DNA of 64,000 nucleotides, taken from the IMG/VR virus record IMGVR_UViG_3300045988_115158, positions 10,702 through 74,701 of that record; one strand, given 5' to 3'. The stretch is from a virus. This document shows positions 9,658 through 64,000 of the stretch, piece by piece. Both the position numbers and the translations under genes were made by a program. The stretch's first letter is position 1; the number at the start of each line of letters is the position of its first letter. The notes beneath the pieces were generated by a model, which did no database searches, had not been told where the DNA came from, and was given only the letters and a program-made list of their open reading frames with translations.

Positions 9658-10845
9658 TTAGTTCAGCGTCACTTCTAGTCGTTTAGCTTTTTCCTCTATT
9701 TCTAGAGGGTTTAGCACAGGAACTTCTTGCTCTTGTTCAAGATTTACCCTGTTTAACGGAGTTTTAGGTACACCTAATTTGTACATAAGAGTGTAATGCA
9801 TATATGGAGTTATTAACTCTTTTAAGTGCTCAAAATCTGAAATACTTAGTCTAATTGTTTGATCTGAATGCTTAGACCAATGCAAGTTAAATTTTGTAAG
9901 CATTACTTCTTGAATAACTTTAATATCTGCATCTGTAAAACAGTTTGTACAAATTGTTATAGAACCATGGTCATAACATCCATCATCCATTATCCAAACT
10001 GCAATACCCAAAGGTTCAATGTTGTCTATAAGAGATTTATTAATATATTTTATTTTATTATTATGATATAATTTATTATAATAGGCTCCCATAGCATCAT
10101 TTACTTTAAAATGTGTATACAAACAAGCATACCATTTACCTTTTATATCATTAAAGTTATCTTTAAAAGATACTTTTCCACAAAATCTTCTTAATTTATT
10201 ATATTTCCAATAAAAATATTCCGCTTGTTTTAAACTATGTGCAAACATTCCAGTTCCACTTTCATCTCTAAGATACCCATCTCCTAATAAACATCCTAAG
10301 AATACTTGAAATTCCTCCGAAGATAATTCATTTAATCTATTTTTATTTTTATTTGGAGATAGCCCTAAAGATCTAGCATATTCTGAAATAGCACTATTAC
10401 TAGTATTTAATTCTTTAGCAATATCTACGTAAGTTAATCCTTGATTATATAAATCAATAAATTTATTTTCATCAAACTTTGGTTTATATTCAAAATTTGA
10501 ATCTAAATTTTTACGTATACGCCAGTTACGTACAGTAACATGATTTAATTGAACTATTCTAGCAATTTCAGAGTCATTTTTTCCTTCTTTATAAAGTTTA
10601 TACATTTCTTCATCATACTTTGCACGATTTTTATAAAGAGACCCATAAATACCCTGACCAATACTCGGAATATTAATTTTCTTTTCTTTAGGTTTTAAAA
10701 TATCTTTAGCACTTAAATTAAATTCAGATAATCTCTTTCGAACTACTGAGAGAGTTACTCCTAGTTTATCTGCTAATTCTTGTCTAGTATGGCAAGAATT
10801 AGCTGCTTCAATAAAATCACTTTTAGAAATTTCAATTTTTTTCAT
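9658..10845 (-). CDS. free-standing LAGLIDADG homing endonuclease with N-terminal HTH repeats
   Basis: LGCLLGDGYL and VWIMDDGCY motifs. Three sigma70-r4-like HTH repeats at the N-terminus. Located immediately downstream of the intron-containing helicase gene. Confidence 0.65.
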   Translation of the reverse strand: MKKIEISKSDFIEAANSCHTRQELADKLGVTLSVVRKRLSEFNLSAKDILKPKEKKINIPSIGQGIYGSLYKNRAKYDEEMYKLYKEGKNDSEIARIVQLNHVTVRNWRIRKNLDSNFEYKPKFDENKFIDLYNQGLTYVDIAKELNTSNSAISEYARSLGLSPNKNKNRLNELSSEEFQVFLGCLLGDGYLRDESGTGMFAHSLKQAEYFYWKYNKLRRFCGKVSFKDNFNDIKGKWYACLYTHFKVNDAMGAYYNKLYHNNKIKYINKSLIDNIEPLGIAVWIMDDGCYDHGSITICTNCFTDADIKVIQEVMLTKFNLHWSKHSDQTIRLSISDFEHLKELITPYMHYTLMYKLGVPKTPLNRVNLEQEQEVPVLNPLEIEEKAKRLEVTLN

Positions 10846-10910
10846 ATACTATAATTTTTAATATTATAGTAATATATTATCTAAAATGGATTATTATCAA
10901 AGCTTTTATT

Positions 10911-11939: not shown

Positions 11940-12103
11940 ACCAATACCTGAACTAGCAAACAACAATGTAAAAGTACTTTTAGTAAGTCCACCTGTTATT
12001 TCTTCTAGTTTAGGTAACCCTATACTTAATCCATGATTTCTTCCTAATCTACCGTTTTCTACTTCTTTCTTAAAACTCTCTAAACTCACAGAGTTGCAAC
12101 AGT
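11940..12103 (-). CDS. DnaB-family helicase, exon 1 segment (no start codon; -1 frame relative to 12086-12697 ORF)
   Basis: Reads ...NHGLSIGLPKLEEITGGLTKSTFTLLFASSGIG, the DnaB motif preceding Walker A. Opens right after a TAA. Confidence 0.5.
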
Positions 12104-12697
12104 ATTACAGTCCATTCCAGTGTCTCCATTCTTTAAAGCTTCAAGATCTTCCCATTTTTCATCTACAATAAATGTAGCTAGGCTATAATTAATAATACCA
12201 TTATCAGTATTAGCTTCCCAATCTAGTAAATCAATAATCTTTTTATGAAGTTCTTCATTCCAATGGATTTTCTTTCCATAAGTTCTATAAGCATCTTCAA
12301 GACTATTAAACTTTTTAGAAACACCTAGCATACTAGTTAAGCATCCATTAATATTTCTAAATCTAGGATAATGTTCTCTAAGTTCTTTTCCCATTTCAAA
12401 GGAACTCTTAGCTAAACATTTTAGGAAGTTTTTATTAAATGGTATCTCTTCAGGAACTAGTTTCATTCCTGGAATAATTTTATAACTTTTAAGGATAAGA
12501 CCTTTATCTTGTAAAGATTTAAGTATATCTATAAAACTTCCTACATACTTTTTATCAATAGCCAAATACCTACGAAGATAATCTTCTGAATAATCTTCTA
12601 TATAAGCATTTATAGCTTTAATAACAAATAATTCAGTAGGAGTAATATTATATTTTTCTAAAATTGTTATTTCTTCATCAATGTTTAAATCAAACAT
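12086..12697 (-). CDS. DnaB helicase N-terminal domain ORF (probably fused to downstream exons via frameshift or indel)
   Basis: 203-aa ORF ending 16 nt inside the exon-1 frame. The combined length (~450 aa) fits DnaB. Confidence 0.45.
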   Translation of the reverse strand: MFDLNIDEEITILEKYNITPTELFVIKAINAYIEDYSEDYLRRYLAIDKKYVGSFIDILKSLQDKGLILKSYKIIPGMKLVPEEIPFNKNFLKCLAKSSFEMGKELREHYPRFRNINGCLTSMLGVSKKFNSLEDAYRTYGKKIHWNEELHKKIIDLLDWEANTDNGIINYSLATFIVDEKWEDLEALKNGDTGMDCNTVATL

Positions 12698-12775
12698 ACA
12701 GTAATTCGGATAATTAAAAGTCTTCCATACTGTAATTAAGTTAATCTCTTTTCAGAGCGATATTAATACATAGAT

Positions 12776-26304: not shown

Positions 26305-26695
26305 TAAGTACCCCTTTGGTACTTACAAATTAAATAATAAGATTAAATAATTGGAGGCATGTATAATCTACAATACTGATTAGCATACCAAATCCAACCC
26401 TTCTTAAATGCTTTTAAAGTTCTTTTTAAAATTTTCATCATAATAAATCAAATTTAAAGTTTAACTTATAAAATATCTAGGAGGAGAGTTTAAAAATTTA
26501 AGAATCCCAGGTAAATCACCCCTGTTAGAGACATGGTCTCTATTTTTATTATTTAGGATTCTATAGGAATGCAAAAAACGTCGAACCATTCCAGTTCGTA
26601 GGTTCTACGACACCTAATAGGCGAGTATGCATCGTTGAGAGGCACCCTATAAGTTACGTTGCTCCTGTAACTAGTATTCTAGAGCTTTATCATAG

Positions 26696-26773
26696 TGTGA
26701 GATGTGGGAATCAAACCCACGCAAGCCTTCACATTGGAAGTGTGATGTGCGCCTTCAACTACACTAATCTCAC
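26696..26773 (-). tRNA. tRNA-Gly(UCC), extended variable region
   Basis: Acceptor gtgagat/atctcac. Anticodon arm tcaca-cuUCCaa-tgtga. T-arm gtggg-tttgatt-cccac. Confidence 0.55.
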
Positions 26774-26785
26774 ATTGTTTAATAG

Positions 26786-26859
26786 TGGAGCGTAGGAGAT
26801 TCGAACTCCTAAGAATGCCTGCGTGCAAAGCAGGTGCTGACCATTTGAGCCGACGCCCC
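26786..26859 (-). tRNA. tRNA-Ala(UGC)
   Basis: Acceptor ggggcgt/acgctcc. Anticodon arm cctgc-tuUGCac-gcagg. T-arm aggag-ttcgaat-ctcct. Confidence 0.55.
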
Positions 26860-26869
26860 AAATTGGAGA

Positions 26870-27346
26870 TTACTCTCCAGTTAATTGTTTTATTTTAAGT
26901 TTAGCTTGTGTTAATTCATATATTAAATCAGATATAGTTTTTTTATTATCTTTAAGATGTTTTTTGAGAGCTTTAATAGCTAATTTCATGCTATTAAAGT
27001 TCTTTAAATTATTTGCTATGGATTCTAATTCTTTAAAAGACTTAGTATCATCAAACAAAGATATATTAACTTTAGCTTGTAATTCTTTAATTTTAAGATT
27101 CTGTTTTTCAATCTCATTTTCTAAAGACTGAATCTTATTATTTAAGGAAGCTATAGTCGATCCATCTTCTAATTCATCTATATAGGATTCTAATTCTCCG
27201 ATTTTTTGTTCTAAACCAGCATAATGCTTTTTTCTTTCAGCATCATACTCTTTAAACCTATTTATTTTGCTTTTTAAAACAGCTATAATAAAATCCTTTT
27301 TATCATAAAAGTTTGCGTCAGATTGATAATTAAAAGTTTTTTTCAT
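26870..27346 (-). CDS. coiled-coil protein
   Basis: 158-aa ORF rich in heptad-like E/K/L repeats. Confidence 0.45.
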   Translation of the reverse strand: MKKTFNYQSDANFYDKKDFIIAVLKSKINRFKEYDAERKKHYAGLEQKIGELESYIDELEDGSTIASLNNKIQSLENEIEKQNLKIKELQAKVNISLFDDTKSFKELESIANNLKNFNSMKLAIKALKKHLKDNKKTISDLIYELTQAKLKIKQLTGE

Positions 27347-27366
27347 ATTATTTATTTTTTAACTAG

Positions 27367-27438
27367 TTGTGGGTATTGGACTCGAACCAATGACCGTTTG
27401 CTTATGAGACAAACAAGCTACCACTGCTACAACCCACG
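27367..27438 (-). tRNA. initiator-type tRNA-Met(CAU)
   Basis: C1xA72 mismatch (cgtgggt / acccaca + a). D-arm and T-arm nearly identical to bacterial tRNA-fMet. Anticodon loop cuCAUaa. Confidence 0.6.
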
Positions 27439-27447
27439 ATATTAAAG

Positions 27448-27519
27448 AGCTTCAAGTAGGATTTGAACCTACGACCCGCATTTTACAAGAATGCTGCACT
27501 ACCACTGTGCTATTGAAGC
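27448..27519 (-). tRNA. tRNA-Thr(UGU)
   Basis: Clean cloverleaf. Acceptor gcttcaa/ttgaagc. D gcac-agtggta-gtgc. Anticodon gcatt-cuUGUaa-aatgc. T gtagg-ttcaaat-cctac. Confidence 0.7.
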
Positions 27520-27664
27520 TTAAATAAAGGCGAATATGGCATTAGACGGGCGAACTATCGTGACCATATTCTAATAATACATTGAGCTATCAGGCATACT
27601 CGTGGATCGCCACCGCTACCTCTAACAACCGCCTAGTTAAATGCTAGGTCCTCTCTATTATTTG

Positions 27665-27741
27665 CGGAATATAAGGGACTCGAACCCTTAGTTTTACTAG
27701 AGTGACAGTCTAGTTCCCTTACCAACAGGGCTTAATACTCC
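27665..27741 (-). tRNA. tRNA-Asp(GUC)
   Basis: Acceptor ggagtat/atattcc. Anticodon ctaga-cuGUCac-tctag. T aaggg-ttcgagt-ccctt. Confidence 0.55.
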
Positions 27742-27812
27742 AGGCGCCTCTTGTGTACACATTTCTTTTCGAGAAGGTAGCTAACCTTAGAAATAAGAGG
27801 CATATATTATTG

Positions 27813-27893
27813 CGCCTAGACTAGGATTCGAACCTAGGAACCTTTCGGGGCAAGTTAACAGCTTGCTGCCGTTGACCACTTGGCTATCTAGAC
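27813..27893 (-). tRNA. tRNA-Asn(GUU) with ~12-nt variable region
   Basis: Acceptor gtctaga/tctaggc. Anticodon gcaag-cuGUUaa-cttgc. T ctagg-ttcgaat-cctag. Confidence 0.5.
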
Positions 27894-37024: not shown

Positions 37025-37116
37025 ATGTTAATGTGTTATTTAATTAAACAAAAAAGAGCCTAACTAGATTAACTAATTAGACTCTTTAAAATAGAATAAT
37101 ATAATAAAAGAAATAG

Positions 37117-37189
37117 TGGGCTCGCCCGGGATTGAACCGAGAATAAGAGATTATGAGTCTCCCGTTTTAACCGATTGAACTACAAGCCC
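37117..37189 (-). tRNA. tRNA-Met or tRNA-Ile2 (CAU anticodon), elongator type
   Basis: Acceptor gggcttg/cgagccc. Anticodon ggaga-cuCAUaa-tctct. T ctcgg-ttcaatc-ccggg. Confidence 0.55.
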
Positions 37190-37389
37190 GAGTAGGTACT
37201 TCTAAGAATAAATAAGAACTCAGTACCTATATTGAGGAATCCGTCGTTGGATCAGTTCTACGCAATTTAGGCTTTTTAAGAAGCCTTAACTTACTAAAGT
37301 TTTCGCACAATTTTGATAAGAGCTCTACTTTCACAAGCAAAGCTCTTTTATTTTTAACAACTTATAAATTACAATAATGATAGAAAAAG

Positions 37390-37461
37390 GAAATGCGGAC
37401 AGATTTGAACTGTCGACCTTCTACTCAACGATAGACGCTCTAACCACTGAGCTACACATTT
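37390..37461 (-). tRNA. tRNA-like gene with non-canonical anticodon loop (6 or 8 nt, cgttga / tcgttgag)
   Basis: Perfect acceptor, D-arm (gctc-agtggtta-gagc) and T-arm (gacag-ttcaaat-ctgtc). The anticodon arm tctat-cgttga-gtaga is one nt short of canonical. Confidence 0.45.
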
Positions 37462-39102: not shown

Positions 39103-39291
39103 AATTTATCTATAATTAATGTGTTAATAATCTATTTAAATAATAGGCAATTTTCACTGGTTATATTTAAACTATTCCATTGTCCTCAGTTATCTAACGT
39201 TCTTTCTCTTTTTAACCCAAATGATTAATTTTAAGGTAATTACGCTATTTAATAGAGTTACTGAGAGTTGTTTAGTACCTATTAAAATTAG

Positions 39292-39363
39292 AAGGATATA
39301 GAGGAGTCAAACCTCTTCTTTTGGGGTCAAATCCCAACGTGGCTGTCGTTACACCAATATCCC
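39292..39363 (-). tRNA. tRNA-Gln(UUG)
   Basis: Acceptor gggatat/atatcct. Anticodon ttggg-auUUGac-cccaa. T agagg-tttgact-cctct. Confidence 0.6.
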
Positions 39364-39378
39364 TTGTATCTAATGAAG

Positions 39379-39466
39379 CGGAGAAAGAAGGATTCGAACC
39401 TTCGAGCCATGTAATATGACTAACACCTTAGCAGGGTGCCACTTTCGACCACTCAGTCATTTCTCC
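39379..39466 (-). tRNA. tRNA-Ser(GCU), class II long variable arm
   Basis: 88 nt. Acceptor ggagaaa/tttctcc. Anticodon gcacc-cuGCUaa-ggtgt. T gaagg-ttcgaat-ccttc. Confidence 0.6.
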
Positions 39467-39477
39467 AATAAAGCTTC

Positions 39478-39491
39478 CTATCTTCACAGAC
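39478..39491. repeat. conserved motif CTATCTNTCACAGAC in a hairpin loop (copy 1 of 4)
   Basis: Copies at 39478-39491, 39664-39677, 43071-43085 and 43155-43169. Each lies between variable inverted-repeat arms. Confidence 0.5.
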
Positions 39492-39846
39492 AAGAAGCCT
39501 AACAACTCTTTAACGTTATAAAGTCCGCTGACTTCATATTTTAAACATTAATTGTATTAGTTTTTTAAATATGGAAGAGTAGCACTAGCGATGCTCGAAA
39601 TCGCCTTTTAACTTTGAAAAAGTTACGTCCTGACCAGCTAGACGATAGTGCCAAGTAGATTCTCTATCTTCACAGACTGAGAATCTCGTGTATTACAAAT
39701 GAATACTTTTAATAAATTAAAAATTAATGGTGCTCCCTGACAGTACTGACCTGTCTTCCCGAAATTAAAAGTTTCGTGCTCCACCTTAAAGCTTAGAGAG
39801 CTAATTTATAATCTTATTTTGCATAAGAATTTTATTCTTGTATTAG

Positions 39847-39916
39847 TGGAGATATGTGGAATCGAACCACAATCTCGGGATTTTTACCGTGCTCTAACCT
39901 TCTGAGCTATATCTCC
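39847..39916 (-). tRNA. tRNA-like gene, anticodon arm degenerate (loop taaaaat)
   Basis: Good acceptor (ggagata/tatctcc), D-arm and T-arm (tgtgg-ttcgatt-ccaca). Anticodon stem only 3-4 bp. Identity unresolved. Confidence 0.35.
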
Positions 39917-40024
39917 ATAGCCCACATTTCTATAAAGGAGAATAGTGGTAACACCTACCTATACTAATAAATTTATTAGTCAGGATTTATCCAAACACAC
40001 TAACAATATATCAAATTAAATTTA

Positions 40025-40108
40025 TACGGTAGAAAGGATTCGAACCAATGACCTTCTCGAAATGACCTATTATAAAAAGAGATGCTATAACCACTGAGCT
40101 ACTACCGT
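40025..40108 (-). tRNA. tRNA-like gene (84 nt), anticodon region unresolved
   Basis: Acceptor acggtag/ctaccgt and D-arm are clear. T region attggttcgaatccttt is shared with the 40539-40619 element. Confidence 0.3.
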
Positions 40109-40163
40109 AAGTACTAGTTTATATCGGAAAACTAGTAAAACGTTAACACATTATTATGGAAAC

Positions 40164-40514
40164 TTAAAAGCCAAATGAAAACATGGTATCTGCGGAAGTA
40201 CTAAGAGTTACGTAAGGAATTTTATTTCTTATTGTAATAAATACAACAAAGCGTCTTCCTGTATTAACCTCTCCACAATTATGGATTTCTACTCCATCCT
40301 TCATTTCAGAAGAGTATATTTTTAATACCATTTTACCAAACTTACTATTACTAAAAGTAATAGTTTTTCTAGCTTCATTATATACTACTGAAGTTTTAAT
40401 GTAAAATGGGTCACTCCATTCACCATCTTGATAAACAGTGATAGAACCATAATTAAACGCATGAGCTATTGTAGTTAATACAATAAAACTCATTAATAAA
40501 ATAATCTTTTTCAT
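40164..40514 (-). CDS. secreted hypothetical protein (start moved to MKKIILLMSF... to avoid tRNA-like overlap)
   Basis: Signal peptide MKKIILLMSFIVLTTIAHA. The ORF track extends to 40562 but that overlaps the tRNA-like gene. Confidence 0.45.
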   Translation of the reverse strand: MKKIILLMSFIVLTTIAHAFNYGSITVYQDGEWSDPFYIKTSVVYNEARKTITFSNSKFGKMVLKIYSSEMKDGVEIHNCGEVNTGRRFVVFITIRNKIPYVTLSTSADTMFSFGF

Positions 40515-40538
40515 ATTACTCAATCTTTTTAATGTTAG

Positions 40539-40619
40539 TACGGAGTAAAGGATTCGAACCAATATAACCTCTCTATGAATTGTGGAAATGAGGTGCTCTA
40601 GCCATTAAGCTAACTCCGC
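40539..40619 (-). tRNA. tRNA-like gene with enlarged anticodon loop (~11 nt)
   Basis: Acceptor gcggagt/actccgt. D gctt-aatggcta-gagc. Anticodon region cctcat-ttccacaattc-at(a)gagg. Confidence 0.3.
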
Positions 40620-40626
40620 ATGTGTG

Positions 40627-40711
40627 TGAGGGAAGAGGGACTCGAACCCTCAAGAGCATAATGCTAACAGTTTAGAAGACTGTGACGCTTCCAATTACGC
40701 GCTATTCCCCC
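40627..40711 (-). tRNA. tRNA with UCU anticodon (Arg by code) and unusual 15-nt variable arm
   Basis: Acceptor gggggaa/ttccctc. D gcgc/gcgt. Anticodon acagt-cuUCUaa-actgt. Variable tagcattatgctctt. T gaggg-ttcgagt-ccctc. Confidence 0.5.
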
Positions 40712-60090: not shown

Positions 60091-60672
60091 ATGAATAAAG
60101 ACAGAGCAATTTTTAATCAGAATGAAAAATTAGCCATGACAGTTAATGGCTTAGAAAGTGGTGGTATGCACTTTAATGTTAATGAGAAACAAGCAGATGA
60201 TTTAGTAAAGAATGAAGCTATTAGTAAGTTTAATACTCAAGTAGATGAATATGTAAATCGTTTTGAAGAACATGCTAAAGCTTTAGAGAAAGCCGTTGAA
60301 GAATTTACTATGTCATCTAAAGCTGAGATTAGACCTATTGGTAATTATATTATTATAAAACCTTTTGCTGAGAATCCTTTTCAACGTATTAAAAAGGTTG
60401 GCGGACTTATCATTGATTTAGGAGGTCAAAAACCTCAATATAAAAATAATGATAATGGCGAAATTGAGGAAGAAGAGAATATTACCAAATCAGGAGTAAT
60501 TGTAGAGGTAGGTCCTGAATGTAAATGGGCACAGATAGGAGATTGTGTATTCTATCCTAGAACTAGTATTATTCCAGTGCCTTTCTATAAACAAGGCTTA
60601 GAGCTTGTAAATGAAGCAAGATTAATAGCAATAGTAAATGATAATTTAACAGAGAGATTCAATGGAAGATAA
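60091..60672 (+). CDS. GroES/gp31-like co-chaperonin fold protein
   Basis: IRPIGNYIIIKP...GGLIIDLG...SGVIVEVGPE...GDCVFYPR...LIAIV matches the Cpn10 mobile-loop/beta-barrel pattern. Confidence 0.45.
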   Translation: MNKDRAIFNQNEKLAMTVNGLESGGMHFNVNEKQADDLVKNEAISKFNTQVDEYVNRFEEHAKALEKAVEEFTMSSKAEIRPIGNYIIIKPFAENPFQRIKKVGGLIIDLGGQKPQYKNNDNGEIEEEENITKSGVIVEVGPECKWAQIGDCVFYPRTSIIPVPFYKQGLELVNEARLIAIVNDNLTERFNGR

Positions 60673-62612: not shown

Positions 62613-63313
62613 ATGGCTGAAGAAATTAAACGTAAACGAGGAAGACCTAAGAAAATACCTACAGTAATTGACGATGTAAAACCTAAAAAGAAGCCTAAAA
62701 TACCTAAAGAGATTTAGGATATGATTAATAAAGTACATGGCACTGTAGAAGATCCTATGAAGGAAGCGGTTGAAAGTCTTAAACCTTAGAAGATAGTTGA
62801 AGAATCTAAACCCGTATTAGAAATAAAAGAGACTGATACTGATGAAGCTATCTTAGGTAAAGTTAGAGATTAGTCTGGATGGGATGTAAAAAAAGATGAT
62901 CCTATACCTTATTTTGATGCTAATTTATCTTATGAGTTAACTGGATATAAACCTATTAATAAATACAGAGGTTTAGATTTTAATCCTTCATGGTTTACTG
63001 AAACTAGAGATACTTTTGTAAGAACTGGACATTATACTAGATTTAGAAGAAACTCTAGAAGCTGGAGAGCTTTTTGGAAAGAATAGTTTATACGATGTAA
63101 ATATGGTATGACTTCTCATGGTTATACTATTACTGGAGACCATTATTATTTCCTCAACTTTTATAGATTAAAAGATCTTGATAATGTTGAAGAAGCAGGT
63201 ATGGGACGTCAGGAAATTTTCCCTAATTTTCTAGAAGGATAGTACGAATGGTTTCATTATTTAAAATTAGCTAGAAAATTACGTATGAATGCCTGTATGA
63301 TGAAAGCCAGAGG
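62613..63313 (+). CDS. terminase large subunit (T4 gp17-like), 5' exon ending inside Walker A; TAG-recoded
   Basis: ...HYLKLARKLRMNACMMKARG parallels T4 gp17 ...KRMTVCNLSRQLGKTT. The frame then runs into stops and structured sequence. The 3' boundary is approximate. Confidence 0.5.
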
Positions 63314-63420
63314 GGCGGACTTACTGCCCTCCTATAAGGTGACTTATAGGTAATAAATTCCGAAATTTCGGTGAAGACTAAGGTGATTTAATCACGATAA
63401 TATTTTTAAATTTTTATAGT

Positions 63421-64000
63421 ATGAATAAAGAAGAACAAATTGAATTTATTAAGGATAATTATCCAGCAACAACACATCATATTTCTAAGAGAAGAGTTCG
63501 TCATAATTTTTTCTCTAGTATAAAAACAGAATTACAAGCTTATTTGTTAGGTTTTTATACTGCTGATGGAAGTATTGATGAAAAACGTAAAACTTTTAGA
63601 GTAGAACTACAAAAAGGAGATTCTGAAATAGTATATTTATTTAAAGATAGTATTTCAGAAGATGCTAGATTATATCAAACTAAAGAAAAAGACTTTATGG
63701 GACCTAGAGGAAAAGTAATACATGCCCATGGTAATATAGGAGTAGATATAACAAGTGCTTAGTTATGCCAAGATTTAGTAAATTTAGGTATAGGATATAG
63801 AAAAAGTTATGAGGACTTAAAATTACCTAATATTGATAAATCTTTAATAAGGCATTTCATTAGAGGATACTTTGATGGTGATGGGTGCATTTGTGGTTAT
63901 ATTAGAAATGATAATAGGAATCCAGATTATCCTAGAAAAGGATTTAGAAGATAGTTTGATATATGTGCTAAAAAATCTTCATTACTTCTTGATATATAGC
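63421..64000 (+). CDS. LAGLIDADG homing endonuclease (intron-encoded, TAG-containing), truncated by window end
   Basis: LLGFYTADGSI and IRGYFDGDGCI double motif. In-frame TAG in ..ITSA(Q)LC(Q)DL... Confidence 0.55.

Follow-up and report, generated by a model that had tools for sequence, protein, structure and literature searches.

Group I introns that carry a homing endonuclease gene (HEG) are familiar in phages, where, as in the T4 td, nrdB and nrdD introns and those of the Staphylococcus phages Twort and K, the endonuclease open reading frame (ORF) lies in a peripheral loop, the insertion sites fall in conserved catalytic motifs and the elements spread by homing. The Zeta crAss-like phages, with genomes of 145-192 kb, combine dense introns and inteins with stop-codon recoding in their late genes; in that study, introns were identified by their endonuclease domains and not by RNA structure (Yutin et al. 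2021, PMC7886860). Group I introns have also been found in phage genes that encode the large subunit of terminase (TerL), sometimes several per gene, and these introns splice experimentally (PMC11878797). Here we report the analysis of a 64,000-nucleotide (nt) stretch of viral DNA (IMG/VR record IMGVR_UViG_3300045988_115158, positions 10,702 to 74,701), called the window throughout. We propose that it very probably ends in a mobile, self-splicing group I (IA-like) intron, which carries a LAGLIDADG gene and splits the P-loop of the TerL gene of a crAss-like phage.

The element resembles the Zeta crAss-like introns in that its host is a recoded human-gut phage, and the contigs considered here measure 169-181 kb and encode a crAss-like TerL; beyond that work (PMC7886860), we describe the RNA family, the exact TerL insertion sites (one in Walker A and two in motif III), ORF-less forms and an unusual C at position -1 of the predicted 5' splice site. 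The IA2-type introns of SPO1/Bastille-like Bacillus phages (I-BasI, Bastillevirinae TerL) share its architecture, with a P7.1 hairpin between P7 and P3', and likewise interrupt core genes that handle nucleotides, TerL included (PMC11878797). They differ in the endonuclease, which is an HNH enzyme in the Bacillus introns and a LAGLIDADG enzyme in the crAss-phage intron, and in the host, here a Bacteroidota-associated recoded phage. Compared with the T4 and Twort introns, the host genes are different, the ORF extends about 146 nt into the catalytic core (P5'-P8) and the predicted 5' splice site is paired as C-G; intron endonucleases of Staphylococcus phages and the LAGLIDADG protein are 28-29% identical. 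The phenomenon is already known in kind, both as HEG-bearing group I introns and as intron-rich crAss-like phages, and what is added is modest: a family invisible to Rfam and the C-G pair.

The interrupted terminase gene and its alleles

TerL exon 1 occupies positions 62613-63316 on the plus strand, as delimited by its translation, its match to PHROG 6681, tblastn against uninterrupted alleles and the junction seen in empty alleles. It consists of 234 codons followed by GC, the first two bases of Ala235, and contains five in-frame TAGs (62715, 62787, 62871, 63084 and 63243). From the ATG at 62613 the reading frame leads to ...RMNACMMKARGA (...LKLARKLRMNACMMKARGA) and then, as a first-pass annotation made from the letters alone had noted, runs into stops; these are the TAA TAA at 63351-63356, the TAGs themselves being sense codons.

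The same annotation had called the gene a gp17-like large terminase, and the second half of this label is well supported. For the spliced protein, PHROG 6681 ("terminase large subunit") gave a match with E=4.6e-66 over residues 114-753, exon 1 is 97-98% identical (tblastn) to residues 1-235 of uninterrupted alleles of 803 amino acids (aa), and the C-terminal exon matches annotated Crassvirales TerL genes at about 25% identity. The likeness to gp17 is fainter: the spliced TerL, as a single sequence, had no match in Pfam or in a PDB search, whereas a family profile built from 62 diverse relatives matched the TerL of Thermus phage P74-26 in its ATPase domain (E=0.0011) and, weakly, the chains of T4 gp17 (E=0.02-0.1). 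Terminase_6N was matched by one of the 62 relatives (E=4.5e-4). Judged by homology, the gene to which exon 1 belongs is a large terminase gene, with a resemblance to gp17 that is remote and confined to the profile level.

In the profile alignment, KaRGvGkSE falls on the Walker A motif and llfEE on the Walker B motif of solved TerL ATPases (P74-26 and gp17), and in the 62-member alignment R233 is nearly invariant while G236, E346, G378 and T379 are invariant. Because of this Walker A alignment and of the conservation of R233 and G236, the break point can be placed inside the P-loop, at K231-A-R-G-A235 ^ G236-Y-S (here and below, a caret marks an insertion point). The break had been described as lying immediately before GKT; the residues that follow it are in fact G-Y-S (KARGAGYSE), and the alignment indicates that the P-loop of this phage TerL is a deviant GYS form. 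At the other end of the protein, the first 110 or so residues (window 62613-62940) are rich in Lys and Arg, with RKRGRPKK giving a weak AT-hook-like match; this extension lies outside the match to the PHROG TerL profile, which starts at residue 114, and is conserved in relatives.

A neighbouring standard-code protein (window 60091-60669) has its gene on contigs of 55-179 kb that come from many human-gut samples; IMG/VR and a protein-guided scan supplied further related loci, numbered here with an L. The window holds the 5' 684 nt of the intron (63317-64000, plus strand), delimited by comparison of intron-plus with intron-minus alleles and by covariation in the family; this portion includes P1, P2, the 5' strands of P3 to P5 and 193 of the 297 endonuclease codons. 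The terminase continuation, expected beyond the window, was found in relatives. In L003, the closest of these (98.4% identical to the window as far as base 63993), exon 2 (GYSEIEAS...) begins 1066 nt past the break, which gives a full intron of 1066 nt. By this length, the 3' splice site would lie about 382 nt past the window end. The window genome probably continues beyond 64000 as L003 does, and its expected continuation would hold about 315 further nt of the LAGLIDADG ORF, overlapping P5'-P8, and then read ...GAAAAUGUACGCUGA-P9-P9.1-G(A/G)UAACAAUGUG, followed by (A/G)GGATAYTCAGAAATTGAG.

Genomes that are more than 96% identical form an allele series with no intron, with 297 nt or with 1066 nt at this site. 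The two parts of TerL are joined exactly in five intron-less alleles (L002, L012, L014, L016 and L017; BLAST, allele against allele), a 297-nt ORF-less insertion is present in L001 and L004-L009, and the 1066-nt insertion with the endonuclease ORF is found in L003, the window and GenBank MT835539. No insertion occurs at the break in the more distant L015, L018 and L019 either. The empty site reads AGA GGT GCA GGA TAC (R-G-A-G-Y), and removal of the intron restores the TerL reading frame exactly. The uninterrupted 803-aa protein is encoded by L012 and L017, to which the predicted spliced protein is 96-97% identical, and public assemblies contain more than 100 contiguous 803-aa proteins that match the predicted exon concatenation (window plus relatives) at 99-100% identity. 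Exon base -3 is G in 13 of 13 intron-bearing loci and T in all six close empty alleles, which fits P1 pairing, co-conversion during homing, or both. A search of IMG/VR for an intron-less junction with the intron-associated GGG codon (GAAAGCCAGAGGGGCRGGATA), which would be the trace of precise intron loss or of a cDNA, gave no match.

Fold and endonuclease gene of the intervening RNA

The 5' part of the RNA fold lies within the window, on the plus strand. The P1 hairpin (63312-63330) is found in the minimum free energy (MFE) fold and recurs in the same register in homologous introns that have U at -1, with a compensatory change in L024. Its first strand (63312-63318) joins exon GGGGC to intron GG and, across the loop ACUUA, faces the internal guide sequence (IGS) CUGCCCU at 63324-63330. 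P2 follows as CUAUAAG-GUGA-CUUAUAG (63332-63349), compensated in L020, L021, L023 and L024. The 5' strands of P3 (UUCCGAA, 63358-63364), P4 (CGGU, 63369-63372) and P5 (GAC, 63376-63378) were each assigned from an unedited alignment and its pair counts, with J3/4 (AUUU) after P3 and J4/5 (GAA, 63373-63375) after P4; their partner strands lie beyond the window. The GC-rich segment with hairpins that had been described here is not borne out: 63317-63420 has 30.8% GC against 29.9% for the window, only the P1 stem being GC-rich, and the ccgaaa/tttcgg hairpin is most likely not functional, its two halves being the 5' strands of P3 and P4.

The unedited alignment was produced by plain MAFFT from eight paralogous and orthologous introns and brings five helices into register. 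In these helices, 97.3% of cells pair and 14 of 28 pairs show changes on both sides, against 26-51% pairing in slid controls; six of the seven P3 pairs are changed on both sides, and four different P3 sequences are present. The conserved blocks of this alignment are CGGUGAA...AAUACCG, GUAACGCGUAG, CCAAGAGU, GAAAAUGUACGC, AUAAAAAG and GAUAACA...G, with variable stems between them. In a curated set of ten helices, 99.7% of cells pair and 36 of 51 pairs are compensatory, and none of 500 shuffles was as good. The order of stems, P1-P2-P3-P4-P5-P4'-P6-P7-P7.1-P3'-P8-P7'-P9-P9.1, agrees with group I, and the interleaving of P3 and P7 is the group I pseudoknot; this architecture is shared by five paralogous introns. 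The P7.1 hairpin between P7 and P3' we take to be a trait of subgroup IA in the Michel-Westhof classification. Every family member ends in G. The MFE fold of the ORF-less 297-nt intron (z=-5.1) recovered P1, P2, P3, P4, P5, P8, P9 and P9.1 independently.

The check with Infernal that the first-pass annotation had suggested gave no match to the Rfam group I model RF00028: cmscan of the whole window at the gathering threshold, of 63200-64000, and of the ORF-less intron and intron 2 at E<=10 returned only tRNAs and chance matches, with no group II model among them. The assignment of the intervening RNA to the group I architecture is one from comparative structure and not from Rfam, and in this form the proposal of an intervening sequence with a LAGLIDADG gene at Walker A stands. 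Along the J8/7-P7'-P9-P9.1 tail, the intron shares 78-83% identity with those known from Bacillus Bastillevirinae, Staphylococcus and Clostridioides phages. The match in Bacillus phage Eyuki is the I-BasI DNA-polymerase intron, which has the same P7/P7.1/P3' layout with a compensated P7; RF00028 gives this Bacillus intron 42.8 bits and the crAss family nothing. The two differ further in P4-P6, where the crAss family has CGGUGAA/AAUACCG and the classical Bacillus introns have UUGCUGGGAAA/AAUCAGCAGC, and in P7, with GCGUA/UACGC and GACUA/UAGUC respectively. The standard Rfam model misses the family, and a dedicated covariance model would recover many unannotated crAss-like introns.

The double-motif LAGLIDADG ORF with in-frame TAGs, described earlier as beginning at 63421, was confirmed. 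The first 193 of its 297 codons occupy 63421-64000 (plus strand); it opens at the ATG at 63421, meets no TAA or TGA before the window end and contains three TAGs (63760, 63952 and 63997). Pfam LAGLIDADG_3 aligns with it in two stretches (E=7e-9), the motifs LLGFYTADGSI and IRGYFDGDGCI stand in one chain, PHROG 4645 matches with E=4e-39, and endonucleases that are encoded by introns of Staphylococcus, Bacillus and crAss-like phages share 28-31% identity with the protein. The endonuclease had no match in the PDB, and Pfam found no Hint domain in the ORF of the window. The gene lies in loop L5, at intron positions 105-998, and in L003 the last 146 nt or so of the ORF double as the ribozyme core P5'-P8. 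In a pairwise comparison of the 1066-nt and 297-nt forms, HEG-plus and HEG-minus introns differ by one clean segment of 769 nt, bounded by ATTTAAT(C/T)AC; alignment of the two forms places the left copy of this direct repeat (ATTTAATCAC), the point of insertion or deletion in L5, at 63386-63395 on the plus strand.

Together, these elements suggest the following pathway. The GGGGC at the end of exon 1 would pair with the guide sequence in the late TerL transcript and form P1, and the core would fold into P3-P8, including the P3/P7 pseudoknot and the P4-P6 domain, together with the P7.1 hairpin. Guanosine would then attack after C63316 and the freed exon after the terminal G of the intron, so that GC would be joined to A-GGA and ...KARG-A-G-YSE... 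of the 803-aa terminase restored. The 297-aa endonuclease would be translated under a TAG=Gln code and presumably cleaves the intron-less TerL alleles (site AGAGGTGCAGGATACTCAG) of co-infecting relatives, and repair of the cut allele would copy the intron in, which is homing.

Choice of splice site and alternative readings

GGA stands at both junctions and creates a 3-nt ambiguity in the DNA comparison, within which we infer the position of the splice sites. The sites that we favour are exon ...GGGGC ^ GGACUU...AAUGUG ^ (A/G)GGAUA. Placed after C63316, the 5' site lets the intron end in G, turns the A/G polymorphism into the synonymous third base of Ala235 (compare GCA, GCC and GCG in empty alleles), gives the register of the family-wide GCC guide sequence, and agrees with diverged TerL introns of the same type (I1-type), which share the codon phase and have the canonical U(-1).G. 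Indeed, diverged TerL fragments that halt at the same residue carry I1-type introns in a split codon GUN or CUU, which puts U at -1. In four of these introns (L020-L024) this U stands opposite the homologous G of the IGS, and the compensatory change in L024 pairs exon GGGCU with IGS GGCCU. Introns I2a, I2b, I3 and I4 come after a GGU codon, the U of which faces the G of the 5'-GCC guide sequence.

At the Walker A site, C63316 would pair with G63326 of the IGS, as C-G instead of the conserved U.G wobble. The sequence GGGGC ^ GG is present in 13 of 13 intron-bearing loci. C stands at -1 because the split codon here is that of Ala (GCN), and none of the options that restore the frame gives U at this position. 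Ribozyme activity depends to an important degree on the conserved U.G wobble, the replacement of which by C-G raises P1 undocking about 80-fold in Tetrahymena (PMC1891724). That we are dealing with a natural group I intron with a Watson-Crick C-G pair at the 5' splice site, in an Rfam-invisible family that reaches at least six Gly-rich sites in nucleoside triphosphatase (NTPase) motifs through a GCC guide that matches GGU codons, is a claim to which we give even chances. If it is true, efficient splicing would imply that the ribozyme family tolerates or compensates the C-G pair, possibly with help from a LAGLIDADG maturase, because TerL is essential and the allele is common. This splice-site C is a small oddity of interest to ribozyme biology.

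The alternative that survives best, although we consider it unlikely, keeps the group I intron and moves its splice sites two bases downstream (...GGGGCGG ^ ACUUAC...AAUGUGRG ^ GAUAC), so that the C at -1 would be an artefact of the ambiguity. The GGA at both junctions allows this placement in the DNA comparison, the intron would still end in G, and GAUAACA would be as far from the end as it is in intron I2a. However, the base at -1 would then be a G at the loop end of P1, which is likewise non-canonical, and the U at -1 in the same codon phase of the four diverged I1-type introns, with its compensatory change in L024, argues for the site after C63316, as do the family-wide register of the 5'-GCC IGS against exon GG(U/C) and the synonymous A/G polymorphism of Ala235. 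For the A-type allele (L003 type), the spliced junction is predicted to read GGGGCAGGAUAC with the site after C and GGGGCGGGAUAC with the site two bases downstream.

Beyond the position of the splice sites, readings as a split gene, an intein or a group II intron were considered and rejected on the broken frame, the absence of Hint and reverse transcriptase domains, the covarying group I fold and the mid-codon break in the P-loop. A TerL that is truly split or decayed, made as separate polypeptides or left as a pseudogene, with a free-standing homing endonuclease gene and no splicing, would agree with the lack of an intron match in Rfam, and free-standing endonuclease genes between split phage genes do exist. 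We consider it very improbable, as the break falls between the second and third base of a codon inside an invariant P-loop and exon 2 lacks its own start codon where it meets the insert. Against it also stand the 297-nt ORF-less form at the same site, the conserved covarying fold of the intervening RNA, and the intron-bearing alleles, which many samples contain on contigs of 169-181 kb and whose exons match intact alleles at 96-98% identity. The last possibility, that the insert is an element of a different type such as an intein, a group II intron or a translational bypass element, can be dismissed almost entirely, even though a LAGLIDADG intein does occur in the same gene of L001 and L003: at 35 nt from the start of the insert the exon frame meets TAA TAA, the ORF opens with an ATG of its own, the ORF-less form, just 297 nt long, encodes no reverse transcriptase and matches no group II model, and the topology is that of a P3/P7-pseudoknotted group I RNA.

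For the mobile, self-splicing group I intron that we propose, catalysis and the activity of the endonuclease are expected from established group I and homing biology. Several points count against it. The ribozyme's 3' two-thirds, the remainder of the endonuclease gene and exon 2, all beyond the window, were taken from relatives whose TerL architecture is variable. The local hairpins of the curated alignment were picked by eye. RF00028 has no match to the intron family even at E<=10. Finally, a C-G pair at the 5' splice site would mean either that splicing is atypical or inefficient, or that the true site lies elsewhere within the 3-nt GGA ambiguity.

Related introns, inteins and the recoded phage genome

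Two earlier P-loop insertions in the window, implied by the first-pass count of three, were recovered by nhmmer searches with the 297-nt form, and both are on the minus strand. The first (11939-11559), a group I intron that belongs to this RNA family, splits the P-loop of a DnaB_C-type helicase (ASSGIG ^ KSS). The second (14255-13934) is an ORF-less intron of this family in the P-loop of a superfamily 2 helicase (ResIII/Helicase_C, DEAH box; ASTGFG ^ KSR) and shows a compensated change in P7 (GCAUA/UAUGC). The helicase intron at 11939-11559 retains just a C-terminal remnant of a LAGLIDADG ORF; upstream of it, a 221-aa ORF (12086-12751) is out of frame with the ASSGIG exon, and a further break may lie near 12090-12250. 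At about 10857-9502 (minus strand), a 399-aa LAGLIDADG ORF (9658-10857) is followed by a P9.1-like hairpin and the GAUAAUAUAUUG tail of a more distant intron relative.

TerL itself is interrupted at other positions in relatives. Two different introns lie 6 nt apart in motif III, at MGG ^ TGG in L002 and at MGGTG ^ GE in L003 and L004. The TerL of L001 and L003 contains a Hint+LAGLIDADG intein of 344-345 aa after Walker B (...LMFEE ^ C; C...HN ^ C; Hom_end_hint E=1.7e-24) and additionally has a motif III intron. In the population, TerL can thus hold up to three selfish elements, namely an intron in Walker A, an intron at one or other motif III site and, after Walker B, the intein, and their presence or absence, together with the endonuclease-plus and endonuclease-minus states, could mark recombination between co-infecting phages. 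The motif III introns (L002, L003, L004 and L019) each occur with or without a 316-aa LAGLIDADG gene, and in L025, a diverged relative, a related intron lies 4 nt downstream of the Walker A site.

In the family members inspected (I1, I3 and I4 of the window; L002, L003 and L020-L025), the 5'-GCC guide pairs with exon GG(U/C), and all family members are inserted in Gly-rich NTPase motifs (GxGK, RGxG, GGTGG). A bias of the intron family towards P-loops rich in Gly codons may come from the guide sequence itself.

The window has a GC content of 30% and appears to use two codes. Minus-strand genes from about 1 to 48 kb follow the standard code, and the late genes, which begin at about 50.3 kb, yield long ORFs only with TAG as a sense codon. 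TAG positions in TerL alignments correspond to Gln in 22 of 61 comparisons with relatives, the biggest single class, and TAG is most simply read as a sense codon for Gln in the late genes, TerL included. For annotation, this means that in these abundant gut phages the terminase, the two helicases and other core genes, which look like stop-riddled fragments, are intact once TAG is read as Gln and the introns are removed. The phage is a large TAG-recoded crAss-like phage of the human gut, of about 170-180 kb, and the contig sizes of 169-181 kb, the recoding, the intron load and the type of TerL are consistent with the Zeta group of crAss-like phages (PMC7886860).

ARAGORN found no CUA suppressor tRNA in the window, although the recoded codon is TAG. 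Clusters of tRNAs are located on the minus strand at 26695-27893, 37116-37461 and 39291-40711; among them, two tRNAs were predicted with a UUA anticodon (40024-40109 and 40539-40619, the latter with a putative 11-nt intron) and one, at 37389-37461, was reported as being of undetermined type.

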